The position numbers were made by a program, and so were the translations under genes. A stretch of 64,000 nucleotides of DNA from an uncultured Gammaproteobacteria bacterium (lineage in GTDB: Bacteria > Patescibacteriota > Patescibacteriia > UBA11705), in contig CAZQEI010000002.1 in the NCBI GenBank assembly GCA_964592195.1, positions 77,240 to 141,239 of the forward strand, in the 5' to 3' direction. Shown here in pieces: positions 3,376 through 46,589 of this stretch. Under the pieces are notes generated by a model. The model was not told the origin of the DNA. It made no database searches and worked only from the letters and a program-made list of their open reading frames with translations. Each line of letters opens with the position of its first letter. Within the stretch, counting starts at the first letter, position 1.

Positions 3376-3984
3376 TTACTTATTCACACACTCTTCTCTA
3401 TCATTAAAATACACACCATATGGTTTAACTCTTTCATTGGCCTCGACCAAAGACACTCGCTTCGCCACGACCTCCGGCTCCATATAGTGACAAATCATGC
3501 GCTTGAAATCAATCAATTCCAGTCCAACTGGGCGAGATTGAAATACTTCCGCAGCGCGTTTGGTATGACCTTCGTACAGCAGGCACGCTACTTGAACTCT
3601 AGCATCTTTATTATCAACACCTTCACAGCGCCATTGACGATGAGGATTCTTGTCCATTTCTTCCGTCAGATTCCCCATACCCCAGAGCATATTCAATTCA
3701 TCCGCGTAATGCACTCGAGCATCATCACTAGCCATCTTGGCCAAAGTCGAAGCTTCTGAATATTCACGACTAGCAACCAAACAATTAAAGTAATCAACAT
3801 CTGTCTGATAGTCCATACGACAACAAGCTTTTCGTCCTTCATTCAAACCAAGACAAAAATTCTTATACACGTTCATTTCAGTAGTTACTTTCTTATCAAA
3901 TATCATCCAATACGGTTTCTGATCTTCAGCTAGAATAAGAGAGGAATAGCCACAAATCACCAAAATTAACGCTTTTCGGCTCAT
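3376..3984 (-). CDS. secreted Cys-rich hypothetical protein (paralog B)
   Basis: 202 aa, same length and Cys spacing as 2702..3310 (FCLGLNEGRKACCRMDYQTDVDYFNCLVASREY). Confidence 0.5.
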   Translation of the reverse strand: MSRKALILVICGYSSLILAEDQKPYWMIFDKKVTTEMNVYKNFCLGLNEGRKACCRMDYQTDVDYFNCLVASREYSEASTLAKMASDDARVHYADELNMLWGMGNLTEEMDKNPHRQWRCEGVDNKDARVQVACLLYEGHTKRAAEVFQSRPVGLELIDFKRMICHYMEPEVVAKRVSLVEANERVKPYGVYFNDREECVNK

Positions 3985-4080
3985 ATTGCCTCCTTGGAAT
4001 TGTTGTTGTTTGTGAAATTGCCAAAGATCTTTAACTGATTAATATACATTAAATCTTTATTTTTGTCAATGTGCCAATAA

Positions 4081-4674
4081 TTAACGTTTCTTTTCATCTG
4101 CCAAAAAACATTTATCATCATTAAATCTCTCTTTCCATTCCTCCGGATTGCCATAATCAGCAAATTCACTATACCAACCATGATTAAATTTTGGCTTATG
4201 TGCGGCCTTAATTGGACACCAATATCGTTCCGTTCTTCCAGCGATTTCAACGGCGTAGGCAAATAAACCATTTACATAAGTACAATAAACGCAATGCACC
4301 TTTTCAATCCAATTCAAGTAATCCAAGAATTGACGATCATAAACAATAAAATCTCTTCGTTTAACTTTTGGGATGTGATAAAGAGAAAAAGCTACTGCGT
4401 GATACAGTGAAAGAAACACATCCAAAATTAACGCTGGAATTATCATCATGTAAATAAAGGGTAGAGACAAGACATGCCTAATATGTTTTGGAATAACATA
4501 TTTCCAAGCAGGAATTTTAAAACTTTTATTCCTCTTACGAATGGCCTCCAAAAAAACCACCTTCTTACCGGCAAAATAAAAGCCATATTTTTCCGCCATC
4601 TTGTTATACTTTTCAGATAATTGCTTATTCAACGCGGCAATTTTGTCTAACAAATCTTTGATACTTTGGTTCAT
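4081..4674 (-). CDS. hypothetical membrane-associated protein
   Basis: 197 aa ORF with one hydrophobic stretch; no recognisable motif. Confidence 0.4.
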   Translation of the reverse strand: MNQSIKDLLDKIAALNKQLSEKYNKMAEKYGFYFAGKKVVFLEAIRKRNKSFKIPAWKYVIPKHIRHVLSLPFIYMMIIPALILDVFLSLYHAVAFSLYHIPKVKRRDFIVYDRQFLDYLNWIEKVHCVYCTYVNGLFAYAVEIAGRTERYWCPIKAAHKPKFNHGWYSEFADYGNPEEWKERFNDDKCFLADEKKR

Positions 4675-4790
4675 AAAGTTAACTAAGTTTTAATAGTAAC
4701 ATGAGTATAGCATAAATTTATATTTTTTGAAGCCTCTTTTTCAATCAAAAAAGGGTGACACGATCGTCACCCCCCTTTCATATAATTTAT

Positions 4791-5399
4791 TTAATCTCTT
4801 GTCGATCTCTTCTTCACTCTCCAAATTAGGAACATCAGTCCCGAAGTCGACGGCACGGCTCGACCCAGGTAAATCCACGAAAAGATATCGTTGTTCACCC
4901 AGGCTGGATAGACCGCACACAACGTCGCGAGGAGCACCGCTCCCCAGACGACCAGAGACTCAGTGCATTCCTTCGCTTTCAACAGCTTCTTCACCGTAGC
5001 GAAGTAAGCGATCAGGGCAATGCTCTGCACCAAGCCATAGGATATCAAAGCGTCTTTCGTAATCATCCAGAATACCACGATCACGGCGCCAGAAAATAGA
5101 CACCACTTCTGAACAGTATCGAACGCTACATTAAGCGTGTGGTTGCGAATATTGGTTACCAGAACGCCGATCAAGATGGTTGAAATGTTAAAGACACCAG
5201 CCACGACCGCGATATTGGCCGTCCACGACTTGTTCGGGTTTGACCAATACATAATAAAGGACAAAGAGATAACCACGAGCATCAGAATCCAGGTGGCCAA
5301 GACCGGCTTGGTCACGCCATGCCAGGTCAACCACACGTAGTAAAACGCTGAAACGATCATCATGACCACCGTACCCACGACCATGGCGCCGTATAGCAT
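4791..5399 (-). CDS. integral membrane protein (GC-rich gene)
   Basis: 202 aa with about six TM helices; GGAGG RBS 7 nt upstream of the ATG; local GC about 50% versus about 35% genome average. Confidence 0.45.
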   Translation of the reverse strand: MLYGAMVVGTVVMMIVSAFYYVWLTWHGVTKPVLATWILMLVVISLSFIMYWSNPNKSWTANIAVVAGVFNISTILIGVLVTNIRNHTLNVAFDTVQKWCLFSGAVIVVFWMITKDALISYGLVQSIALIAYFATVKKLLKAKECTESLVVWGAVLLATLCAVYPAWVNNDIFSWIYLGRAVPSTSGLMFLIWRVKKRSTRD

Positions 5400-5816: not shown

Positions 5817-6005
5817 CTATTCTACACTAATTGCTTGAACTGGGCAAGCGTCCTTGGCTTGGTTGATTTTATCCGAATATTGATCGTAAGCGACATCTGG
5901 TTTGACCCCCGCCTTATTATCTCCTTCGAAAACAAACACTTCTTCAGCCATGGCAATGCAAGATCCGCACCCAATGCACTTTTCCTTGTCTACTTTTGGT
6001 AACAT
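5817..6005 (-). CDS. 4Fe-4S ferredoxin
   Basis: 62 aa; CIGCGSC...ACP motif. Confidence 0.65.
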   Translation of the reverse strand: MLPKVDKEKCIGCGSCIAMAEEVFVFEGDNKAGVKPDVAYDQYSDKINQAKDACPVQAISVE

Positions 6006-9657: not shown

Positions 9658-12600
9658 TTATTTTAATTCTTCAAGCTGTCGAGTAAGTACTTGTTGCTTT
9701 TCATTCGCATCAGCCAGTTTTTGTTTTTCTTGAGTAATAATATTTTCCGGTGCGTTTTTCACAAATTCTTCGTTGTTCAACTTTTTATTCAAACTGTTTT
9801 GATAGTTAACCACATTCTCAAGTTCATCCGCCAAACGAACTTTTTCTTGTTCCACATCTACTAATTCAGCCAAAGGAATAAACGCTTCTACCCCAGAAAC
9901 AACTAAGGATGCCGATTGAGCCGGTTTTTCTTCTGCCCAAATTAAATTTTCAACTCGCGCCAAGAATTGAATCATGGTTTGATTATCGCGAATTAAGTTA
10001 CCATCGTTTTTTACCACTAAACTAACCTTTGTAATGGGATCAACATGATAAGCTGAACGCACATTGCGAATACCGGTAACCACTGCTTGCAAACGCGCGA
10101 AGTTAACTAAAGCATCTTCATTTACAAACTTCTTTTCTGCTTTTGGCCATTCAGTCATCATTAAACTTTCTTTTTCATCGAGCAATGCCCAAATTGCCTC
10201 AGTAACAAATGGTAAGAATGGGTGCCACAATGTCACTAAAGTTTTCAGCACATAAAACAAAATTGCTTCTTTATCTTTTTCTACTTTCGCAATTTCCAAA
10301 TACCAATCAGCCAGATCACTCCATGTAAAATTGCGCAAAGTTTCCGCCGCGGCGGAGAAATCATATTGGGCGAAATTATTTTCCACTTGCTTTTTTACTT
10401 CTTCAACACGAGCCAATATCCATTGGTCTGCCAAAGTTTTTGGTTCAACTTTACCTAACTGCTTATCTTCCAAACTAGTAATTATATACCGAGAGATATT
10501 CCACAGTTTGTTAACGAAGTTTCTGGTGCCTTCAATTTTTTCCAGGTAGAAACGAGCATCATTACCAGGAGTATTTCCAACTAGCAAAGACAAACGCAAA
10601 GCATCAGTACCATATTTTTCAATCATTTCAATCGGATCAATACCATTACCCAATGATTTGGAAAATTTTCTACCTTTATCATCACGCAAAATGCCATGAA
10701 TATACACATCTTTAAATGGAATTTCATCTAAAGCATAAGTGGTCATCAAAACCATGCGCGCTAACCAGAAAAATAAAAGTTCATGGCCCATTTGCATCCA
10801 AGTAGTCGGATGATAAGTTTTTAAATCTTTTGTTTTATTCGGCCAGCCTAAAGTTGAGAATGTCCATAAACCTGAACTAAACCAAGTATCAAGAGTATCA
10901 GCATCTTGATAAACATCCGTTGAACCGCAGTGACAAGTCACTGGAGTAGTTTTAACGGTCACGGATTGACCAGGATCAGGGTAAGTAAAAGCGTATATTT
11001 GTTCATTGGTTAAATTTTCTTGGAAACCTTGCACCACGCGCAAAACATCACCATGGGAGAAAACTAAAATTGTTTCACCGGGATGGTTTTTCCCCATTTC
11101 GCGCATGAAATCATAAACTCGATTTCTCAAAGATTCAAACGATTCAATCCCGCGAGGTGAATCCTTTTCCCACATAGAAAAACTGGTTCTGAAATTCACA
11201 AAATCATCATTATCTTTACCTTCAAATTCACCGACACCCACTTCTTTCAAGCGTTCATCAGTATTGACTGGCAAATCAAATCTCTCAGAAAACATTTTCG
11301 CTGATTCTTGCGTTCGTTGTAATGGTGAAGCATAAATGGCGGCAAACTTCGTATCTTTCAATCTAATCATCGCATCTTCAATATTTTGACGACCCTGGGT
11401 AGTTAATGGATTATTATGATTGTTTGGGTCTGCATTTAAAATATTAGTCGTATTACCCACACACTCACCATGACGATGAAAAATAAAAGTGGTTGGTGGT
11501 TGGGCCACGCAAATCTTCTCATTACACTTCTTACAATACCAAACAGGAATACGATGTCCCCACCACACTTGGCGAGAGATACACCAATCATGCAACTTAT
11601 CAATCCAATTCAAATAATTCTTTTCAAAACGTTCTGGAGTAATCTTAATTTTTTCCTTGCCATTCAATCCGGTAGTCACCGCTTCGCGCATTAAATCTTT
11701 TAAAGTTTTATCTTTACCGGGAATTTCTTTATTAACATTCACAAACCATTGCGTCATGGGCAAAGATTCCACAACATCACCAAAACGATCAGAAGTTCCC
11801 ACAGTTTGAGTTATTTCCTCTTCAGAGATTAACAAACCTTGTGCTTGTAATTGTTCCACAACTTTTTCTCTAGCTTGTTCCACGGTTAATCCGGCAAACT
11901 CGCCGAAGGAAGATTCAATTTTCCCTGCCGTATTAATTACTGGAATCAATTCAATGGGATCACCATTGGCTTTTTGTTTTTCATACATTTCAAAATCAAC
12001 CGAACTATGCGCTGGAGTCACACCTAACGCACCGGTACCAAACGCGGGATCAACTCCTTCGTCAGCAATGACTTTCAATTTCAATTTAATATCACCGACA
12101 AAATTTACTTCAAAGGTTTTACCAATATAGTCTTTGTAACGCTCGTCGTTTGGGTTAACTGCCACAGCAGTATCCCCCAACTTGGTTTCTGGTCTAGTTG
12201 TGGCAATGGCAAATGGGAAATCATGACTATATTTAAAAGTCCAAAATTTGGCTTTTCTTTCTAATGATTCCAATTCATCATCACTGCAGGTTGATTGACC
12301 AACTACGGACCAATTCACCACTCGATAACCGCGGTAAATTAAACCATCAGAATACATTCTCTCAAAAATAGTACTAACAGCTAGACTTCTTTCATCGTCA
12401 AAAGTATAGGCTAAACGGCTCCAATCGCAACTGGTACCCATTCTTTTAATTTGAGAAATAATCGTGCTTTTGCTCTTTTCCGCGTAGTCACGAACAACAT
12501 TTAACAATTTTTGTCGGCCTAATTCTTCGCGAGGATGAGCCATACCTTCAGCAATTAAATTCTTTTCAACTCGAGCTTGAGTCGCGACCGCCGCATGATC

Positions 12601-12870
12601 AGTACCGGGTAATAACAAAACTTGTTTACCATTCATCCTTTGGTAACGAGCCATGACATCCATTAAACTATTCTCCAAAGCATGTCCCAAATGCAAAATA
12701 CCGGTCACGTTTGGTGGTGGCATCATGATGGAGAATGGTTCGGCAAACAATTTTTTATGGGTATCAGGGTTGAAATAATCTGATTCTAACCATTTTTTAT
12801 AAATATCGCCTTCGTAATCCGCAGGATTATAGGCAGAAGGTATGTTTTTCATATGGTAATATTTTATCAT
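9658..12870 (-). CDS. valS: valine--tRNA ligase with an inserted histidine-phosphatase-like domain
   Basis: 1070 aa; PPPNVTGILHLGHAL and KFSKSLGN class I motifs, CP1 editing region and C-terminal coiled coil. About 185 extra residues (aa ~460-645) sit between WYCKKCNEKIC and CHCGSTDVYQDADTLDTWFSSGLW and contain RHGE, SPLQRTQESA and SHG motifs. Confidence 0.9.
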   Translation of the reverse strand: MIKYYHMKNIPSAYNPADYEGDIYKKWLESDYFNPDTHKKLFAEPFSIMMPPPNVTGILHLGHALENSLMDVMARYQRMNGKQVLLLPGTDHAAVATQARVEKNLIAEGMAHPREELGRQKLLNVVRDYAEKSKSTIISQIKRMGTSCDWSRLAYTFDDERSLAVSTIFERMYSDGLIYRGYRVVNWSVVGQSTCSDDELESLERKAKFWTFKYSHDFPFAIATTRPETKLGDTAVAVNPNDERYKDYIGKTFEVNFVGDIKLKLKVIADEGVDPAFGTGALGVTPAHSSVDFEMYEKQKANGDPIELIPVINTAGKIESSFGEFAGLTVEQAREKVVEQLQAQGLLISEEEITQTVGTSDRFGDVVESLPMTQWFVNVNKEIPGKDKTLKDLMREAVTTGLNGKEKIKITPERFEKNYLNWIDKLHDWCISRQVWWGHRIPVWYCKKCNEKICVAQPPTTFIFHRHGECVGNTTNILNADPNNHNNPLTTQGRQNIEDAMIRLKDTKFAAIYASPLQRTQESAKMFSERFDLPVNTDERLKEVGVGEFEGKDNDDFVNFRTSFSMWEKDSPRGIESFESLRNRVYDFMREMGKNHPGETILVFSHGDVLRVVQGFQENLTNEQIYAFTYPDPGQSVTVKTTPVTCHCGSTDVYQDADTLDTWFSSGLWTFSTLGWPNKTKDLKTYHPTTWMQMGHELLFFWLARMVLMTTYALDEIPFKDVYIHGILRDDKGRKFSKSLGNGIDPIEMIEKYGTDALRLSLLVGNTPGNDARFYLEKIEGTRNFVNKLWNISRYIITSLEDKQLGKVEPKTLADQWILARVEEVKKQVENNFAQYDFSAAAETLRNFTWSDLADWYLEIAKVEKDKEAILFYVLKTLVTLWHPFLPFVTEAIWALLDEKESLMMTEWPKAEKKFVNEDALVNFARLQAVVTGIRNVRSAYHVDPITKVSLVVKNDGNLIRDNQTMIQFLARVENLIWAEEKPAQSASLVVSGVEAFIPLAELVDVEQEKVRLADELENVVNYQNSLNKKLNNEEFVKNAPENIITQEKQKLADANEKQQVLTRQLEELK

Positions 12871-14326: not shown

Positions 14327-14375
14327 CTAAACATAAAATTCGTAGATTTGTAGCAAATTCGTAATTCGTAGTCTT

Positions 14376-14500
14376 GGGCAACTAGCTCAGTTTCCGCCAA
14401 AGGCGGATCAGCCTATGGCTGAGGTTAGAGCGACTCGTTGACGTCGAGTAGGTCAGAGGTTCTGCGCCAAAGGCGCATCAGCCTCCGGCTGAGACTCCTA
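14376..14500 (+). pseudogene. degenerate tRNA-Val copy interrupted by hairpin insertions
   Basis: gggcaactagctcag-[ttccgccaaaggcggatcagcctatggctga]-ggttagagcgactcgttgacgtcgagtaggtca-[...tgcgccaaaggcgcatcagcctccggctgagactcc]; no 3' acceptor strand. Confidence 0.6.
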
Positions 14501-14535
14501 CGTTTTATACATTAATAATTTTATACACAAATTTA

Positions 14536-14612
14536 GGGCAATTAGCTCAGTTGGTTAGAGCGACTCGTTGACGTCGAGTAGGTCAAAAGTTCGAATCTTT
14601 TATTGCCCACCA
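14536..14612 (+). tRNA. tRNA-Val (anticodon GAC)
   Basis: gggcaattagctcagttggttagagcgactcgttgacgtcgagtaggtcaaaagttcgaatcttttattgcccacca; anticodon stem actcg/cgagt, loop uuGACgu. Confidence 0.85.
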
Positions 14613-39626: not shown

Positions 39627-40115
39627 TTACATGGAGAAATGAAAAAGGTAATTATACATTAACCAAATACCCCAGGCAGACAAAAGCAGTGGCCCAAATA
39701 AAATTAAATTGAAAACATTTAATTCTGATTCTTTATACGATTTATAGAAATAATAAACAGTTACAAACAAGAAGACAAAAACACTTAACAAAATAGGTAA
39801 AATTGCAAATAATCCGGAGGGAAACATTAACATTATCCCAAGTAAAAATACTGGGACAAACAAACCCATTTTCCAGCGCCAGTGTTTATTTTTCTGAGAC
39901 CAATCCTTGTAACTGGCGGTTAATAATATTGGAACACCAAACAACGATAAAATCATTCCGCAAGCAGTAACGGGTAAAGCCCACGACCAATAATAATTTC
40001 CTGGACTCCAGAAGCCATGTTGCGTGGCAGGGAGAAAAATACTTATAAGAAAAATAGAGACTCCGATTAAAAGTGGAGAGAGAACGAGCAAGAGCAATTT
40101 ATTGTTTTGAGACAT
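39627..40115 (-). CDS. integral membrane protein
   Basis: 162 aa, four TM helices. Confidence 0.4.
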   Translation of the reverse strand: MSQNNKLLLLVLSPLLIGVSIFLISIFLPATQHGFWSPGNYYWSWALPVTACGMILSLFGVPILLTASYKDWSQKNKHWRWKMGLFVPVFLLGIMLMFPSGLFAILPILLSVFVFLFVTVYYFYKSYKESELNVFNLILFGPLLLSAWGIWLMYNYLFHFSM

Positions 40116-40120
40116 ATTTA

Positions 40121-40155
40121 AATTACGAATTTACGAATCTGTTACGAATGTGTAC
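40121..40155 (+). repeat. 35-nt direct repeat (left copy) flanking the NTase cassette
   Basis: attacgaatttacgaatctgttacgaatgtgtacg, identical at 41369..41403. Confidence 0.9.
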
Positions 40156-40164
40156 GAATTATCA

Positions 40165-40899
40165 TTATTGATTTAAATATTTTTTCAGTTCATCCACAAA
40201 CAAACTTTCATTATCGATAAAGTTTTCTTTTCTATATTTCAATGCAGTTTGAATTAAATGATCAGAAGATTCTCGCGCCGCGATTTGTTCAAAAGAATGG
40301 GTTGGCAACTCTCCTCTGTTTTCTTGTTGCATGGAAACCAACCAAAAAAATTCTTTAATTAATGTTTTAAAATCAATTTGTTTATTCTCCCATGCAGGAA
40401 TATAACCATTCAGAATAACTTTAATTTCATCTTGAATAGTTTGTTCCAAGTCTCGTTGAGGAAATTCAGCCGGATTCAAAGGCGTGCCATAAATTATTTG
40501 GCATTCATTTAACTTGGCTAACATACGGTCTGGTTTGGCACGCAAATCAGGTTGAATATCGGTAGGCGTAGCCAATTGATTATGTTCAAACTCCCATAAA
40601 GATAAAGGAATGGCCGCCACTGGTTCAATAGCTGAACCATTAAGCGCAAAGACAGCATCTTCATCTTCGTTATTTCTCACAATTGGAACCATATCCACAT
40701 CACTTCCCTCTTTCATTTCACGACGGACAAAACTGCCTTTGATATAAATAGCTATTAAATTTTCTTTCGGGACAGTGGCAATAATTAAATCACGAGCGTG
40801 TTTAACAGCTTCAATGGCTTTTGATTCGATTGGGGTAATATTTTCCCACGATTCCCAAAAGTTAAAATCCGGAATTTGAATTTGTTCAGATTGATTCAT
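40165..40899 (-). CDS. nucleotidyltransferase-domain protein (Pol-beta superfamily; ANT/Lnu-like architecture)
   Basis: 244 aa; IYIKGSFVRREMKEGSDVDMV = GS-x9-[DE]h[DE]h NTase signature, followed by a ~170-aa helical domain as in aminoglycoside/lincosamide nucleotidyltransferases. Confidence 0.55.
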   Translation of the reverse strand: MNQSEQIQIPDFNFWESWENITPIESKAIEAVKHARDLIIATVPKENLIAIYIKGSFVRREMKEGSDVDMVPIVRNNEDEDAVFALNGSAIEPVAAIPLSLWEFEHNQLATPTDIQPDLRAKPDRMLAKLNECQIIYGTPLNPAEFPQRDLEQTIQDEIKVILNGYIPAWENKQIDFKTLIKEFFWLVSMQQENRGELPTHSFEQIAARESSDHLIQTALKYRKENFIDNESLFVDELKKYLNQ

Positions 40900-40940
40900 A
40901 TAAAAATTATTTTAGACAAGTGGCAGCAATATTATAGTTA

Positions 40941-40984
40941 AGAGATTGCCACGGCCCCCGCCAGCGGGGTCCTCGCAAAAGAGT
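40941..40984 (+). repeat. GAGATTGCCACG-hairpin-CTCGCAAAAGAG element, copy C
   Basis: agagattgccacg-gcccccgccagcggggtc-ctcgcaaaagag; stem changed to ccccg/cgggg. Confidence 0.85.
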
Positions 40985-40990
40985 GTATTA

Positions 40991-41365
40991 TTATTTACAA
41001 CGTTCAACCAAGCGCAGAGATTGTTCGGTGGTCATTAGAGGGGTGATTATTTTTTCCAATTCAATTCGTTTATCGTCCGGCAAATTTGCAAGTTTACCAG
41101 TGATAGCCGTCATCACACGTTCAACGATAAAATTGATAGTATTGCGCGTGATAGATTCTTTATCGCGAATTGGTTCATCATTAATCTTAATCTCTGGTAA
41201 TACAGCGATTGAATCAGCCCAATCATCGAGTTGTTGACGATAAGGTTGACGAATTTTGTCGTATTCAATATCAAAAATAAACAACGCCCCGAAAATAACA
41301 TTCATCGTTTCTCGTTCACGACGACGTTGTTCGAGCAATTGTTGGCGGATTGGATCTTCATTCAT
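40991..41365 (-). CDS. hypothetical protein (second gene of the NTase cassette)
   Basis: 124 aa helical ORF; ATG sits just inside the right direct repeat. Confidence 0.35.
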   Translation of the reverse strand: MNEDPIRQQLLEQRRRERETMNVIFGALFIFDIEYDKIRQPYRQQLDDWADSIAVLPEIKINDEPIRDKESITRNTINFIVERVMTAITGKLANLPDDKRIELEKIITPLMTTEQSLRLVERCK

Positions 41366-41368
41366 ATA

Positions 41369-41403
41369 ATTACGAATTTACGAATCTGTTACGAATGTGT
41401 ACG
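41369..41403 (+). repeat. 35-nt direct repeat (right copy) flanking the NTase cassette
   Basis: Identical to 40121..40155. Confidence 0.9.
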
Positions 41404-41463: not shown

Positions 41464-42264
41464 TTATTTATTAACAATGGTTTGTCGTTTATTTTTAATG
41501 TGATGATAAACAAACCAAGTGCCGGCGATCAACAATAGGACGGCAACGGTGATGGTGAAATATTCGGTATAATGACGAACCGTGGCCCAATTTTTTCCAA
41601 GGATCCAACCAAGGTAAGTTAAAAACGAATTCCACAGAGTTGCGCCAATTAAAGTATAAACAATAAATTTACTTAACTTCATTTTCCCCATACCAGCAGG
41701 CAAAGAAATCAAATGACGAACAATAGGGATGAAACGGCTTATAAAAATAGTTCGCTCCCCTCTTCGAGCAAACCAATGTTCAGTTTTTTGTAAATCTGTG
41801 GCATCCAACAAAAAGTATTTCCCAAATTTATTTACAAAGCGATGGCCGCCGTAATAACCAATATAATAGGAAAATAAGGAACCGATAATGCTTCCTATTG
41901 AGCTAAATAATATTACCAGCCAAACATTTAAGTTACCCTGAACAGCAAGAAATCCGGCGAAGGGCATGACTAATTCTGACGGCACAGGAAAGATCATGCT
42001 TTCCATTATCATTAACAATAAAACTCCTGGGTAACCAAGGTATTCAATAATGCTTGAGATTAATTGACCGGCGTGAGTAAGAGATTGGATAAGGAGGGAA
42101 AGCCAGTTGGGGGGTAAGAAATAAAAAAAGAAAACAAGAAAGCAAAAAAGCAAGGCAACACCTGTAAGAGGAACTGATTTTCGCGTAGGACGAGGCCAAA
42201 CGCGCCATGGACCACTAGGTCGTTGGCGAAAAAAAGAAATAAATGAGTTTAGATGTTTTTTCAT
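41464..42264 (-). CDS. DedA/SNARE-associated family membrane protein
   Basis: 266 aa; LLLMIMESMIFPVPSELVMPFAGF matches the DedA core motif. Confidence 0.6.
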   Translation of the reverse strand: MKKHLNSFISFFRQRPSGPWRVWPRPTRKSVPLTGVALLFCFLVFFFYFLPPNWLSLLIQSLTHAGQLISSIIEYLGYPGVLLLMIMESMIFPVPSELVMPFAGFLAVQGNLNVWLVILFSSIGSIIGSLFSYYIGYYGGHRFVNKFGKYFLLDATDLQKTEHWFARRGERTIFISRFIPIVRHLISLPAGMGKMKLSKFIVYTLIGATLWNSFLTYLGWILGKNWATVRHYTEYFTITVAVLLLIAGTWFVYHHIKNKRQTIVNK

Positions 42265-42330: not shown

Positions 42331-42834
42331 TTATTTAATTAAATCGGCAACGAAATATTTGGTTAGTAAATTCCAGGCGAAGTTGGAGTGGATGGCGGCA
42401 AAGACGGCGGAACTTTCTCCTCCGCAATAATCATAAATTTTTTGCTTTCCACCCGGATGGTTACCAATATAGGTTGTCACATTATAAACTTTGCTGTTTA
42501 CAATTAAATAACAATCATTGGGTGAATTGTGCGCTGAAACTTGCGCTGCAGTTAATCCCGCGGCTGGTGCTGGTGTATTTACGACTGGATTAGGTTTATT
42601 AACTGGAGTATTTACAACTGGCGCTGGTTTATTAGTTGGAGTATTAACTGCAGCGACTGGTTTATTGACCGGCGAGTTAACTGGCTTAGTTGGTTGATTG
42701 ACGACTGAATTATTCACTGGTGGATTATTAAGTGAGATTGACGTTGGATTCAAGTTAACGCCAAAACCCACACCGATCAAACCAGCAACAATGACTAAAA
42801 AGATAACTAACACGAGCCAAGTAATTTTTTTCAT
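42331..42834 (-). CDS. secreted or membrane-anchored cytochrome b5-like heme-binding protein with Pro-rich linker
   Basis: 167 aa; N-terminal TM/signal; PVNKP/NTP repeats; C-terminal YNVTTYIGNHPGGKQKIYDYCGGESSAVFAAIH matches the cyt b5 HPGG heme-binding motif. Confidence 0.5.
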   Translation of the reverse strand: MKKITWLVLVIFLVIVAGLIGVGFGVNLNPTSISLNNPPVNNSVVNQPTKPVNSPVNKPVAAVNTPTNKPAPVVNTPVNKPNPVVNTPAPAAGLTAAQVSAHNSPNDCYLIVNSKVYNVTTYIGNHPGGKQKIYDYCGGESSAVFAAIHSNFAWNLLTKYFVADLIK

Positions 42835-44690
42835 ATTAATTCTTGTTGTATAGCTACTAATTTATTATAATATTTTTTTATTCTATTATATTTCTCAAAA
42901 ATATTCCCTGTTTCCGTACTTATAGGATCATCAGATCTGATAAGGTCATTTCTACCATTTAATGCCAATTCATATTTAAGACCAAGAGCTTTTCCATACA
43001 AATCATCATACTGCTCATTTACTCTGGCGGCCTTAACGCACACTTTTTTTATTATCTCCAATCGTTTATCTATCGGTAAAGTATAAAAATCCTCATGACG
43101 ACAATAAACTTTTAATAATTTAGTAAAGTCATCTTCAGTTATTTTATGCCCAAGAGAAAGGTGTAAATAACCATCCTGCATTTCTTGCATTTGCTGTATG
43201 GTTGACACCCAATTTCTTAATTGAGCAGATATCTCTGAAAAATTGTCCGAGAAATCCAATGGTAAAATTAGGTTTTTAATTATAATCGGAGAAAATCTTC
43301 GATTAACTACTTCTTGAATTTTAGCAAAAACCTCTTTGTCTATTTCTATCGGCAAGATTTTTATTTTTTCTCTATCCTCCACTCTCGACGCATGAACAAA
43401 AGATTGATTATCTTCAAAGCCCAATTGAACTAACCCATCAAAAATCGCCTGCAATTCATCCAATATCACAATAATCGGTTCCATTCTCAAATAATTACTA
43501 CTTAAACTTCTTTCTAAATATGCTTCAAGCTCCACAACCTGAAAGGGCGATACATAATCCTCCGCTTTTTGATGTACTATTTCCGGGTTTCTAATTAATG
43601 ACAACAAAACAGATACCGGAATTACTTTTGTATTCTTAAATAACCACCACCACTCAAAATCTTCAGAAAAAATCCGGTTTTCATCAAACTCTTCTTTCGA
43701 TGTATCAATTAACTTTAATCGGTCAGATAAATCAGCCAAATTTTCACTCACAGAAATAATCGGCCACAAGGTTTTGGCAGGAACATCAAAATATTTCAGT
43801 CTCAATAGCTCATTCATCACTTGTCGCCAGTCAGGACTATAATGCTCCCGAAAAATTTTATCTGGATCAAACATTTTATCGCTAAAAATCCCTCCCGGAT
43901 TAAGGCAATATTCCCCATGCTTGGCATATGCCGCTAACTCATCCAAGGCTCTCCAGTCGCGCATTTTCCGACCAACCACATAACGTGAGTAAAACAAATG
44001 TTGAAGTTCATGATCAACCACGTCTTGACCAACGCCAGCTTTAATAAACCCAAGCTTCCGATTAAAAACAAATAATCGCTTATCCCAACCTTCGTGCATT
44101 ACCATTACAGGTGTTTTATGTGCCAAACCTACAGTAGTTGAATTGGCAATTTCATCATACGGAGATAAAGTTTGATAATCTTCATCTCGCAAACATTCCA
44201 CAATTACAAAAGGTGGTCGATCAGCATGAAAAATATAATCCTTGGGGTCTTTGCTAATTACCGGCAAAAATCTTAAAAAACTCTTTTGCAAAATATCGTC
44301 GTCTTTTAATAATTTCCACGGCTCCGGCGATTGATCAACCACATAATCTCCAGTAGCTGAAGCGCGCATAAATTCTTCACTGGATGTATACAAAACTCTA
44401 ATGGCTTCAATTTCATCACCAACATCTGAGATCCAATCATTCACTCCCGCCTCTATCCAACTCTTTTGCATCTCACTCGCCTTGGCTCCCAATTTTCGAG
44501 CCTCAGTTAAAATTCTTGCAACTATTTCCGGCTGTCCCAAATTAGGATTTTCCCATAAAACTTTTTCCGCCACTTCCAAAAGCACCTCCATAGTTTGGCG
44601 ATGATATTCTTTTTTTATTTCCGGTTGACTCTTTTCCCTAGCAATCTGAGCCGGATCTTTTTCTTTAATTAATGGTCGTAACTCAAACAT
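42831..44690 (-). CDS. HExxH-motif protein (putative gluzincin-like metallopeptidase), paralog 2
   Basis: 619 aa; VDHELQHLFYSRY...DELAAYA; collinear similarity to 44697..46589 throughout; 4-nt overlap with the downstream gene. Confidence 0.5.
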   Translation of the reverse strand: MFELRPLIKEKDPAQIAREKSQPEIKKEYHRQTMEVLLEVAEKVLWENPNLGQPEIVARILTEARKLGAKASEMQKSWIEAGVNDWISDVGDEIEAIRVLYTSSEEFMRASATGDYVVDQSPEPWKLLKDDDILQKSFLRFLPVISKDPKDYIFHADRPPFVIVECLRDEDYQTLSPYDEIANSTTVGLAHKTPVMVMHEGWDKRLFVFNRKLGFIKAGVGQDVVDHELQHLFYSRYVVGRKMRDWRALDELAAYAKHGEYCLNPGGIFSDKMFDPDKIFREHYSPDWRQVMNELLRLKYFDVPAKTLWPIISVSENLADLSDRLKLIDTSKEEFDENRIFSEDFEWWWLFKNTKVIPVSVLLSLIRNPEIVHQKAEDYVSPFQVVELEAYLERSLSSNYLRMEPIIVILDELQAIFDGLVQLGFEDNQSFVHASRVEDREKIKILPIEIDKEVFAKIQEVVNRRFSPIIIKNLILPLDFSDNFSEISAQLRNWVSTIQQMQEMQDGYLHLSLGHKITEDDFTKLLKVYCRHEDFYTLPIDKRLEIIKKVCVKAARVNEQYDDLYGKALGLKYELALNGRNDLIRSDDPISTETGNIFEKYNRIKKYYNKLVAIQQELI

Positions 44691-44696
44691 ATTAAA

Positions 44697-46589
44697 TCAT
44701 TCTTTTGCATTTACAAGTGCCTCTTTCATTTTATCGCGAAGAGCCACGAGCATTTCAATACTCTTATAAATATTTATATTTAAATACTTTGAAAGCTGTA
44801 AATCACCCTGATCCCAAGGTTTCCCCAAAGATACCAGCTCAGATTGCACCGTACCAAGTTCGCTCAATAAATCCTTTCGCTCATCCATCATTTTCAAAGT
44901 TTTTTCAGTAAGCTCTTTTACAATGGAAGCCCTTTTCTCTAATGTCAAATTTACGAAATCATCACCGCCGCAATATGTTTTCAACAAAGCATTAAGATAC
45001 TCAAGCTCAATATCTTGATTGTCACGTAACCAAGTGAATTTATTTTCCATACTGTCTATCGCCTTCAATTGCGATTCCAAGGATCGCAAGAAAAGAACCA
45101 CAGAATGGAAATCTCCGGAAAAATTTTTCTCTATGTCTAACGATCCCAAAGCACCACAACTAAAATTTTGATTTACCATTTTTTGCAATTTTTCAATAAT
45201 ATCAGGATAAATATTAATAAAAAAACCACCAGTCTTAGCTTTTAAACTCAAATCATTTTCATCTTTATATCCAAGTTCCGTCAAACCCTGAAAAACACCC
45301 TGTAAATCGCTAAGCATCAAGATAATAGGATCTAAATAACGATTGGCACTCTTTAAACATTTCTCCAAGTACGGATTTAATTCATTGGATTGGAAGTAAG
45401 TCATAGCGGCTGAGGCGGCAAAACCCAAACTAGCTGGTGTCGCTTTTTTCTTCACATCCGGTGAAAGCTCGGCATGATGTTTAAAAAACCAAGGCCAATC
45501 AATATCCCCTTTTTTTATCCGACTAGAATCAAAATTATCTGGATCAACCTTTACTTTCTGTAAACGAAATTTTAAATCCGCCAAATTTAAGCTGGTTGAA
45601 ATTATTGGCCAAAGAGACTTCGCTGGGACTTCATGATATTGCAATCGCAACAATTCATCTCGAACCTCTCTCCAATATTCATCATATCGATGCTTAAATA
45701 TCGCCTCGTCATCAAGACGGACATTACTAAAAACGCTATCTGGTTTTATACAATACTCACCCCCTTTAGCATACGCCGCTAATTCATCAATAGCACGAAC
45801 ATGAAAATATTTACGAGGTGCAACATATCGATTATAAAAAAGATGTTGCAATTCGTGATCACGCACCGATCTATCAACCCCACCCCGAATAACACCAATT
45901 TTACCAACAAAGGCTTCCAATCTAGGATCCAAGGGTTGATCCATATTAACAGGACGCAATTTTTGAGAATTGATAAACGCTAAACCATTGCTACTATGAC
46001 GACTTGAGGCAGATTCATCATAGGGAGACAACGCTTGATAATCTTTTATATTAAAGCATTCAATAATAATAAAAGGTGGACGATTCACATGAAAACGAAA
46101 ATCCCGACGATTACTACTTTCCACAGGTAATAAGGCCAATAAACTTTCTTTTAAATCTCGATCATCTTCTAATAACTTCCAAGGCGAATCATTATTATCT
46201 AGCGCTTTAACTCTAGAAGGACGAGAACTATTCTCATATAAAGCACGGATGGCATCAATCTCTTTCCCTATATCTAAAGTCCATTCATCCACCGATTCTT
46301 CCACCCACCGACGTTGAGTCTCACTAGCGTGAGCGCCAAATTCCCTAGCAGAGGATAAAATTTTATCCACTAATTCTGGACGACCAAGATTGGGGTTTTT
46401 CCACAATACTTTTTCAGCTTCACGCAAAATAATTTCCATTGCCTGAATATGGTATTCTCGTTTAATGCCTATGTCATTCTTTTGTCTAGCCACCAGCTCT
46501 GCGCTTTTATTTGGTTGTATTAATGGGTGTAAGGTTTCAAACATATTAAAAATTAAATTCTTCTGAATGAATATTCTTGCGATTGACAC
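44697..46589 (-). CDS. HExxH-motif protein (putative gluzincin-like metallopeptidase), paralog 1
   Basis: 630 aa; RDHELQHLFYNRY...DELAAYA; shared blocks EAEKVLW.NPNLG.PE, RPPF[VI]I[VI]EC, YAK.GEYC. Confidence 0.5.
   Translation of the reverse strand: MSIARIFIQKNLIFNMFETLHPLIQPNKSAELVARQKNDIGIKREYHIQAMEIILREAEKVLWKNPNLGRPELVDKILSSAREFGAHASETQRRWVEESVDEWTLDIGKEIDAIRALYENSSRPSRVKALDNNDSPWKLLEDDRDLKESLLALLPVESSNRRDFRFHVNRPPFIIIECFNIKDYQALSPYDESASSRHSSNGLAFINSQKLRPVNMDQPLDPRLEAFVGKIGVIRGGVDRSVRDHELQHLFYNRYVAPRKYFHVRAIDELAAYAKGGEYCIKPDSVFSNVRLDDEAIFKHRYDEYWREVRDELLRLQYHEVPAKSLWPIISTSLNLADLKFRLQKVKVDPDNFDSSRIKKGDIDWPWFFKHHAELSPDVKKKATPASLGFAASAAMTYFQSNELNPYLEKCLKSANRYLDPIILMLSDLQGVFQGLTELGYKDENDLSLKAKTGGFFINIYPDIIEKLQKMVNQNFSCGALGSLDIEKNFSGDFHSVVLFLRSLESQLKAIDSMENKFTWLRDNQDIELEYLNALLKTYCGGDDFVNLTLEKRASIVKELTEKTLKMMDERKDLLSELGTVQSELVSLGKPWDQGDLQLSKYLNINIYKSIEMLVALRDKMKEALVNAKE

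Follow-up and report, generated by a model that had tools for sequence, protein, structure and literature searches.

Whether two identical direct repeats around a pair of small genes mark the borders of an inserted module, or belong to the genes in front of which they lie, is the question raised by a locus in the window (the whole 64-kb stretch of DNA that was analyzed). At this locus, a gene for a nucleotidyltransferase (NTase) of 244 amino acids (aa) and a gene for a 124-aa protein are enclosed by two copies of a 36-nucleotide (nt) repeat. A first-pass annotation had read the arrangement as a cassette delimited by its repeats and carrying either a resistance-like NTase or a toxin-antitoxin pair, an interpretation that we found to be largely unsupported. 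We put a probability of roughly 0.55 on a different explanation, in which the 36-nt repeats are a reused gene-start element, belonging to a dispersed family of ATTCGTAA-box elements, and bracket two resident genes. The components of the locus, in the order in which they would be transcribed, are as follows.

41464-42264, minus strand: gene for a DedA/VTT-domain membrane protein, the neighbor upstream of the repeat-bounded segment
41403-41443, minus strand: two 8-bp hairpins (loops AUUC and GAAU; z = -4.5) in the spacer that separates the DedA stop codon from copy R
41368-41403, minus strand: repeat copy R, reading CGTACAC-ATTCGTAA-CAG-ATTCGTAA-ATTCGTAA-TT; shared segment 41363-41413
40991-41365, minus strand: gene for the 124-aa protein, predicted to be helical, with no histidine and from a rare family
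40165-40899, minus strand: gene for the 244-aa two-domain NTase (GSFVRREMKEGSDVDM), with an N-terminal Pol-beta NTase domain and a C-terminal helical bundle
40121-40156, minus strand: repeat copy L, identical to copy R at 36 of 36 positions, with a complete fourth box, ATTCGTAC, in front; shared segment 40113-40166
39627-40115, minus strand: gene behind copy L, for a 162-aa multi-pass membrane protein without a Pfam family

Both reading frames between the repeats are present as first annotated. The perfect 35-nt direct repeats reported with them are real as two copies, but the left one had been placed one base off, and the exact identity amounts to 36 nt. Exactly two occurrences of the 35-mer are present in the window (40122-40156 and 41369-41403), as against 0.00 expected from dinucleotide shuffles, and ungapped similarity between the copies extends to 46 nt at 93%. 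When the minus strands are aligned pairwise, a shared segment of 54 nt at copy L and 51 nt at copy R emerges, which is composed of AATGATA, three mismatches, the 36 identical positions, a 3-nt indel (presence or absence of TAA), and ATATG. This segment reaches into the start codons of two unrelated genes, with both ATGs included. Only 2 nt separate copy R from the ATG of the 124-aa gene, as had been noted before, and 5 nt separate copy L from that of the 162-aa membrane gene; on its other side, the shared segment of copy L reaches 2 nt into the NTase stop codon and occupies the entire 49-nt spacer behind that stop. The abutment of copy L on a second ATG was missed in the first-pass annotation, and it leads to a different reading of the repeats. 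Read in transcript sense, an element comes first, followed by the 124-aa gene, the NTase gene, the second element, and the membrane gene; all genes of the neighborhood are on the minus strand. The full array of boxes, which are 8-mers, is seen on the minus strand of copy L as (ATTCGTAC-AC)-ATTCGTAA-CAG-ATTCGTAA-ATTCGTAA-TT. The first box is more complete in copy L, and the hairpin is intact in copy R, where AATGATA belongs to it; this is the second of the two upstream hairpins, and its 3' half overlaps the shared segment. The copy L region is less structured as RNA than shuffled controls (z = +1.8), and the element is not palindromic at this locus.

The repeats are members of a family that is dispersed over many genomes. 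A scan for three boxes separated by short gaps, performed on one genome per species of the GTDB set, returned at least 118 stretches, some of them plain tandem repeats, whereas no more than ∼3 are expected by chance according to our own estimate from base composition. Among the matches listed, 42 conform to the architecture ATTCGTAA-ATTCGTAA-nnn-ATTCGTAA-TTCGTA(G), with a box spacing of 8-11-7. This canonical architecture was found in metagenome-assembled genomes (MAGs) labeled as Patescibacteria (Moran-, Falkow-, Staskawicz-, Parcu-, and Saccharibacteria) and also in MAGs labeled as Omnitrophota, Bacteroidota, Bdellovibrionales, and others. Frequently, an arm is joined by an inverted partner (…TACGAATTTACGAATCTnTACGAATATACGAAT…) to give a palindrome of 75-85 nt. 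The plus strand of the window, ATTACGAATTTACGAATCTGTTACGAATGTGTACGAAT, is nearly identical to the partner arms of these palindromes, which identifies the window copies as solitary arms of the box family without a partner. Up to 9-12 arm matches per locus (each locus of at most 8 kb) were counted in other genomes. With box spacings of 8 and 11, each equal to 2 modulo 3, three consecutive TAA triplets close all three forward frames of the element; in reverse orientation the element is open in all frames.

The position of the family members relative to genes is specific. Arms precede, by 3-24 nt, the bona fide starts of murF, ftsK, dnaJ, ruvB, glyA, ddl, and rpoA, and likewise of fusA, eno, secF, ftsH, dnaK, thiC, and frr. 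Of 54 solitary arms, 17 are followed within 30 nt by the ATG of an open reading frame (ORF) of 100 aa or more, as compared with 1 of 54 in reverse orientation and 8.8% for random positions. Elements also occur inside ribosomal protein operons. In the S10 operon of bacterium AUK254 (L053), they stand ahead of five cistrons (rplB, rpsS, rplP, rpsQ, and rplN); in one Patescibacteria locus (L075), they precede rpmC and rplN, and in another (L016), one lies between rpsC and rplP, with others elsewhere. In these three S10/spc loci the elements are palindromes of ∼70-80 nt, of which the right arm terminates in a Shine-Dalgarno-like sequence 3-8 nt from the ATG. More generally, in hosts that use Shine-Dalgarno sequences the last box continues into GGAG or AAGGA, whereas in the host of the window, which is poor in such sequences, it runs straight into the ATG. 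Core genes can also be flanked by elements, as is the case for fusA (L069), ftsK (L021), and apgM (L059), the last with two direct copies 1,307 bp apart. With the same family found upstream of or flanking core genes, flanking by the element is uninformative as to whether the enclosed genes form a cassette. The first-pass proposal that the repeats are borders of an inserted module is left without support in this way, and at the level of the family the repeat is a common intergenic one, unrelated to cassette boundaries.

The ATTCGTAA-box family appears to be undescribed. Rfam at relaxed thresholds, applied to the window region and three element-rich loci, gave only spurious matches to miRNA hairpins and no family, and a full-text literature search on the box strings and on miniature inverted-repeat transposable elements (MITEs) or promoter motifs in bacteria of the candidate phyla radiation (CPR) returned nothing relevant. 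A phage origin of the element was rejected, as viral contigs of IMG/VR contain no canonical element. Readings of the repeat as a site for an extracytoplasmic function (ECF) sigma factor, a CpxR/PhoB-like operator, a dif/Xer site, an attC site, or a RAYT-REP element were dropped because the sequences do not agree with the respective consensus forms. The boxes may also bear some resemblance to the 3' minor domain of 16S rRNA.

These observations suggest how the locus may be organized. Each repeat copy would constitute the last ∼40 nt ahead of a minus-strand start codon: copy R that of the 124-aa gene, with the NTase gene further downstream, and copy L that of the gene for the 162-aa membrane protein. 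The genes for the NTase and its small neighbor would then be residents of the chromosome located between consecutive gene starts, and not cargo between recombination sites. The identity of the copies would stem from a segment of ∼51-54 nt (AATGATA, the boxes, and ATATG) having been copied between the two gene starts, i.e. from the reuse of a leader or promoter. The element would exert its effect chiefly at the mRNA level, where it would serve as a standard 5' leader or intercistronic spacer that is A/U-rich, unstructured, and equipped with stops in all frames, and that is followed immediately by a start codon in a genome mostly without Shine-Dalgarno sequences. As family members are present ahead of internal cistrons of ribosomal operons, a role at the RNA level (leader, spacer, processing, or context of translation start) is more likely than a promoter in every copy. 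A related arrangement is known from putative mobile promoters, in which highly similar upstream sequences precede non-homologous genes of one genome (Nijveen et al. 2012, PMC3575422). As in those cases, the 54/51-nt segment of the window ends in the ATG of two non-homologous genes; unlike in them, no sigma-70-like hexamer pair was found in the element, and the internal ribosomal cistrons hint at the RNA level. The element may nonetheless be a promoter, or may have no role at all, as would a selfish repeat of the REP (repetitive extragenic palindromic) or MITE type.

Several results weigh against the reuse of a gene-start element. A hidden Markov model built from the family arms finds only three sites in the 64 kb, all intergenic (the two repeats and 14339-14372). 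A sigma-70 scan detected no minus-strand site in the element, with a consensus that may not be that of the host, and promoter, leader, and selfish repeat are inseparable on this basis. The spread across phyla rests on the labels that submitters gave to their MAGs. Finally, an exact identity of 36 nt around a patchily distributed NTase gene and a near-orphan gene is also expected from insertion mediated by recombination.

The last point leads to the main rival explanation, namely that the two genes form an excisable cassette of 1,247 bp, the circular form of which, bearing one copy of the element, integrated upstream of the membrane gene in the Campbell manner, by homologous or site-specific recombination, to leave attL-like and attR-like junctions. 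The 36/36 identity within a 51-54-nt shared segment, with outer flanks that differ as they do in hybrid junctions, is what this explanation predicts, and recombination between the copies would cleanly restore an element followed by the membrane gene. The patchy occurrence of the NTase family in DPANN archaea and Patescibacteria (best non-self match ∼54% identity) and the near-orphan status of the 124-aa gene also fit an acquired unit. Like integron gene cassettes with their attC sites and like pdif/Xer modules, the segment is a small unit of ∼1.2 kb that is bounded by repeated sites and contains no recombinase of its own. However, no integrase was found, and the repeat is neither an attC-like palindrome, the element being non-palindromic here, nor a dif-like 11-6-11 site. 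Pfam assigned no integrase or transposase domain to any window protein tested, a set that covers all ORFs of 100 aa or more in the 37.3-51.4 kb interval. In contrast to the sites of integron or pdif modules, the repeat is located at the 5' end of genes, beside the ATG, and its family flanks core genes in other genomes. Nor do the genes look foreign: G+C content, G+C content at third codon positions, and codon usage of both are native, with codon log-likelihoods of +1.9 (NTase) and +0.7 (124-aa protein) standard deviations, above the window mean. Homologues of the NTase gene occur elsewhere without such repeats. On balance, we consider the cassette unlikely, although it deserves to be kept in mind. 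No close relative genome, in which an empty site might be seen, was found in the collections searched.

Selfish repeats without function offer another explanation of the two copies. In this case the window would contain remnants of the REP/MITE type, i.e. single arms left by a palindromic mobile element after two insertions into short intergenic spacers, and the proximity to start codons would reflect sites that are tolerated or targeted. Palindromes of ∼75-85 nt in other loci, near-identical copies within a genome, and insertion inside operons are all in agreement with this, and stops in all frames are typical for repeats that are tolerated in tight spacers. The family indeed resembles REP/BIME, ERIC, and Correia-type repeats, which are short, multi-copy, and intergenic or intercistronic, also within operons, and which are often imperfect palindromes with near-identical copies in each genome. 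It differs from them in that its arm consists of four direct 8-mer boxes rather than a single hairpin, that solitary arms point toward start codons, and that sequence and spacing recur over several phyla; the known families of REP, ERIC, and Correia-type repeats are species- or genus-specific. The orientation bias of solitary arms toward downstream starts (17 versus 1) is not expected of selfish insertions. Furthermore, the shared segment extends past the family boxes on both sides, into AATGATA on one and ATATG, with its start codon, on the other, which indicates a segmental copy or a recombination event and not two independent insertions. No transposase has been linked to the family so far, although no genome-wide search was made. 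Selfish remnants are therefore an improbable, if coherent, account of the repeats, and we continue to prefer the reuse of a gene-start element.

The two proteins encoded between the repeats were also considered individually. The AlphaFold2 (AF2) model of the NTase is confident (pLDDT 94.8), and the best Foldseek matches are the two-domain aminoglycoside nucleotidyltransferases (ANTs) ANT(9) (6sxj/6xz0), ANT(4')-Ia (1kny), and AadA/ANT(3'')(9) (5g4a), with E values from 7e-7 to 3e-4, template modeling (TM) scores of 0.50-0.58, and sequence identities of 11-18%. The first-pass assignment to Pol-beta NTases with the size and layout of aminoglycoside enzymes was borne out by these matches: the protein shares with them a length of ∼250 aa, an N-terminal Pol-beta domain with a G-S...DxD motif, and a C-terminal helical domain. 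The four residues of the motif (G55-S56...D67-x-D69) are invariant in 34 homologues. In Pfam, the Polbeta model gives E = 3.5e-5 with 24.3 bits, below its cut-off of 26.9, and NTP_transf_2 is likewise below threshold. We collected 88 non-self homologues of ∼240 aa and 35-54% identity, from DPANN archaea and Patescibacteria.

This resemblance is the basis of the idea that the segment is an antibiotic-resistance cassette, with the NTase as a mobile aminoglycoside or lincosamide nucleotidyltransferase. The fold is closest to those of ANT(9), ANT(4')-Ia, and AadA, and the G-S...DxD residues are conserved. However, the TM scores do not exceed 0.58, the identities are low, and none of the NCBIfam ANT models is passed (12-20 bits versus cut-offs of 193-545; for example, 19.7 versus 340 for ANT_9 and 15.2 versus 500 for ANT(3'')-I). 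A profile search of PDB sequences produced nothing better than E = 0.07. Unlike the enzymes that it resembles, the NTase of the window fails all curated family cut-offs and belongs to a chromosomal family of DPANN archaea and Patescibacteria (CPR), the members of which are single genes amid housekeeping genes. In four contexts examined (L001, L002, L123, and L124), homologues with ∼50% identity are solitary among housekeeping genes, and no ATTCGTA boxes are present at the homologue loci examined. We regard a resistance cassette as very improbable, and membership of a resistance family, as suggested in the first-pass annotation, is not supported; judged from its sequence, a resistance function of the protein is unsupported, although conceivable. 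As far as its model indicates, the NTase is a representative of an uncharacterized, well-folded ANT-like family that is common to DPANN archaea and Patescibacteria. One of its homologue loci (L001, an Uhrbacteria MAG) contains an unrelated direct repeat of ∼62 nt (3507-3568 and 5831-5892), ending in TTGTTATAGAAT, with each copy 9 nt ahead of a gene start. Between the two copies lie a glutamate dehydrogenase gene and the NTase homologue, and the repeat is a second reused gene-start sequence in a Patescibacteria genome.

The 124-aa protein is a near-orphan. It has no match in Pfam, NCBIfam, or PADLOC, and its single-sequence AF2 model is of low confidence (pLDDT 63.5) and helical at that low confidence. 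An exhaustive search returned only two weak homologues of ∼130 aa, with the common motif IFxALFIxDIExDKI, next to which a CYTH gene is found in one case and a cupin gene in the other, and no NTase gene in either. In L127 (199-1279), the closest homologue (P0211) is followed by the CYTH-domain gene; a nucleotide-processing enzyme stands behind the small protein there as it does in the window, a coincidence of two cases only, which may be due to chance.

The pairing of the two proteins in a toxin-antitoxin system had also been proposed, and was considered here as a toxin-antitoxin or defense pair of the MNT-HEPN type (type VII). The genes are adjacent and on the same strand, as in such systems an NTase gene lies beside a gene for a small helical protein, and the NTase domain weakly resembles MntA and the NTase models of PADLOC. 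However, the 124-aa protein contains no histidine and consequently no HEPN Rx4-6H motif. The MntA_antitoxin model scores 15.3 bits against a cut-off of 60. With 244 aa and a C-terminal domain of its own, the NTase is a two-domain protein of double the size of a minimal MNT (∼100-140 aa). Homologues of neither protein keep the other as a neighbor, and in the window a hairpin element is located between the two genes. The pairing was rejected on account of the absent HEPN motif and the unconserved adjacency, and a type VII system is hardly tenable here.

The hairpin element in question was the single GAGATTGCCACG element reported between the two genes, and it was located as described:

40940-40984, minus strand: GAGATTGCCACG...CTCGCAAAAGAG, enclosing a central G+C hairpin, in the spacer between the NTase and 124-aa genes; GAGATTGCCACG at 40942-40953

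It belongs to a family that is separate from the box family, ∼45 nt in length and with about eight copies in the window (3281, 38300, 39125, 40942, 47848, 51530, 53116, and 63922). The GAGATTGCCACG and CTCGCAAAAGAG flanks are constant and the central G+C hairpin varies with compensating changes; the copies are mostly found just 3' of minus-strand genes and have the appearance of terminators or processing sites.

The box family has one further, divergent member in the window:

14339-14372, plus strand: third element copy, ATTCGTAG-ATTTGTAG-caa-ATTCGTAA-TTCGTAG, of canonical architecture

It lies 12 nt past tRNA-Ile and 3 nt ahead of a tRNA-Val-like sequence; apart from this copy, no general tie between elements and tRNA genes was seen. 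The tRNA-Val(GAC)-like sequence (14376-14530, plus strand) matches an intact tRNA-Val at 14536-14612 in the 5' acceptor strand, D arm, anticodon, and T-stem. It contains two hairpin inserts of ∼30 nt, tccgccaaaggcggatcagcctatggctgag in the D-loop and tgcgccaaaggcgcatcagcctccggctgag in the T-loop, and has no clear 3' acceptor strand. It was called by neither ARAGORN nor Rfam and could represent either a pseudogene or a tRNA with unusual interruptions.

The gene content of the window suggests the type of host. It comprises a bacterial str-S10-spc ribosomal operon and genes for EF-G, EF-Tu, SecY, ArgRS, ValRS, and UvrB. Within the ribosomal operon, the S5 gene is followed directly by that of L15, with no L30 gene between them; the missing L30 and the labels of the homologues fit a Patescibacteria (CPR) chromosome, as we infer from these two lines of evidence. 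Most genes of the window, including those for ribosomal proteins, have no Shine-Dalgarno sequence, and their starts follow A/T-rich contexts such as ...ATTAT-ATG. Close relatives of the locus were sought with little return. In JGI metagenomes, the 32-mer core of the repeat had 0 matches and the 162-aa membrane protein had 0 confirmed relatives, and in a metagenome scan the best non-self match of the DedA protein was 61-68% identical. Exact-protein context look-ups for the NTase, the membrane protein, and DedA gave no record.

Some further features of the window deserve mention. Two tandem paralogues on the minus strand (42831-44690 and 44697-46589; 619 and 630 aa) belong to no Pfam family, and both contain an HELQH motif of the HExxH type; they may be uncharacterized metalloproteases. 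The valyl-tRNA synthetase (9658-12870, minus strand) has a histidine-phosphatase domain (His_Phos_1) inserted at residues 463-633. At 3376-5399 (minus strand), three tandem ORFs of 202, 197, and 202 aa without a Pfam match may form a lineage-specific array of paralogues.

For the locus itself, the analysis implies that a small gene pair of accessory appearance should not be classified as a mobile cassette, a resistance gene, or a toxin-antitoxin pair solely on the strength of identical direct repeats on either side. The by-product is of more value: a box-array element of constant sequence and spacing that is found beside start codons in several phyla, mostly in uncultivated bacteria. A broader view of it is conceivable, although we would not call it probable. 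The ATTCGTAA-box elements might constitute a cross-phylum family of portable gene-start or intercistronic modules, composed of four 8-mer boxes spaced 8-11-7/8, closed by stops in all frames, and leading immediately into a Shine-Dalgarno sequence or start codon, which set translation initiation or mRNA processing, ribosomal protein operons included, and which also act as patches of homology where genes such as the NTase pair are captured or given a start. A repeat family common to several phyla would be unusual, and the box-element family, more than the gene pair itself, is the part of this locus that is worth following up. If functional, it would provide a rare handle on how expression is organized in Patescibacteria and in other lineages in which initiation is not led by Shine-Dalgarno sequences.

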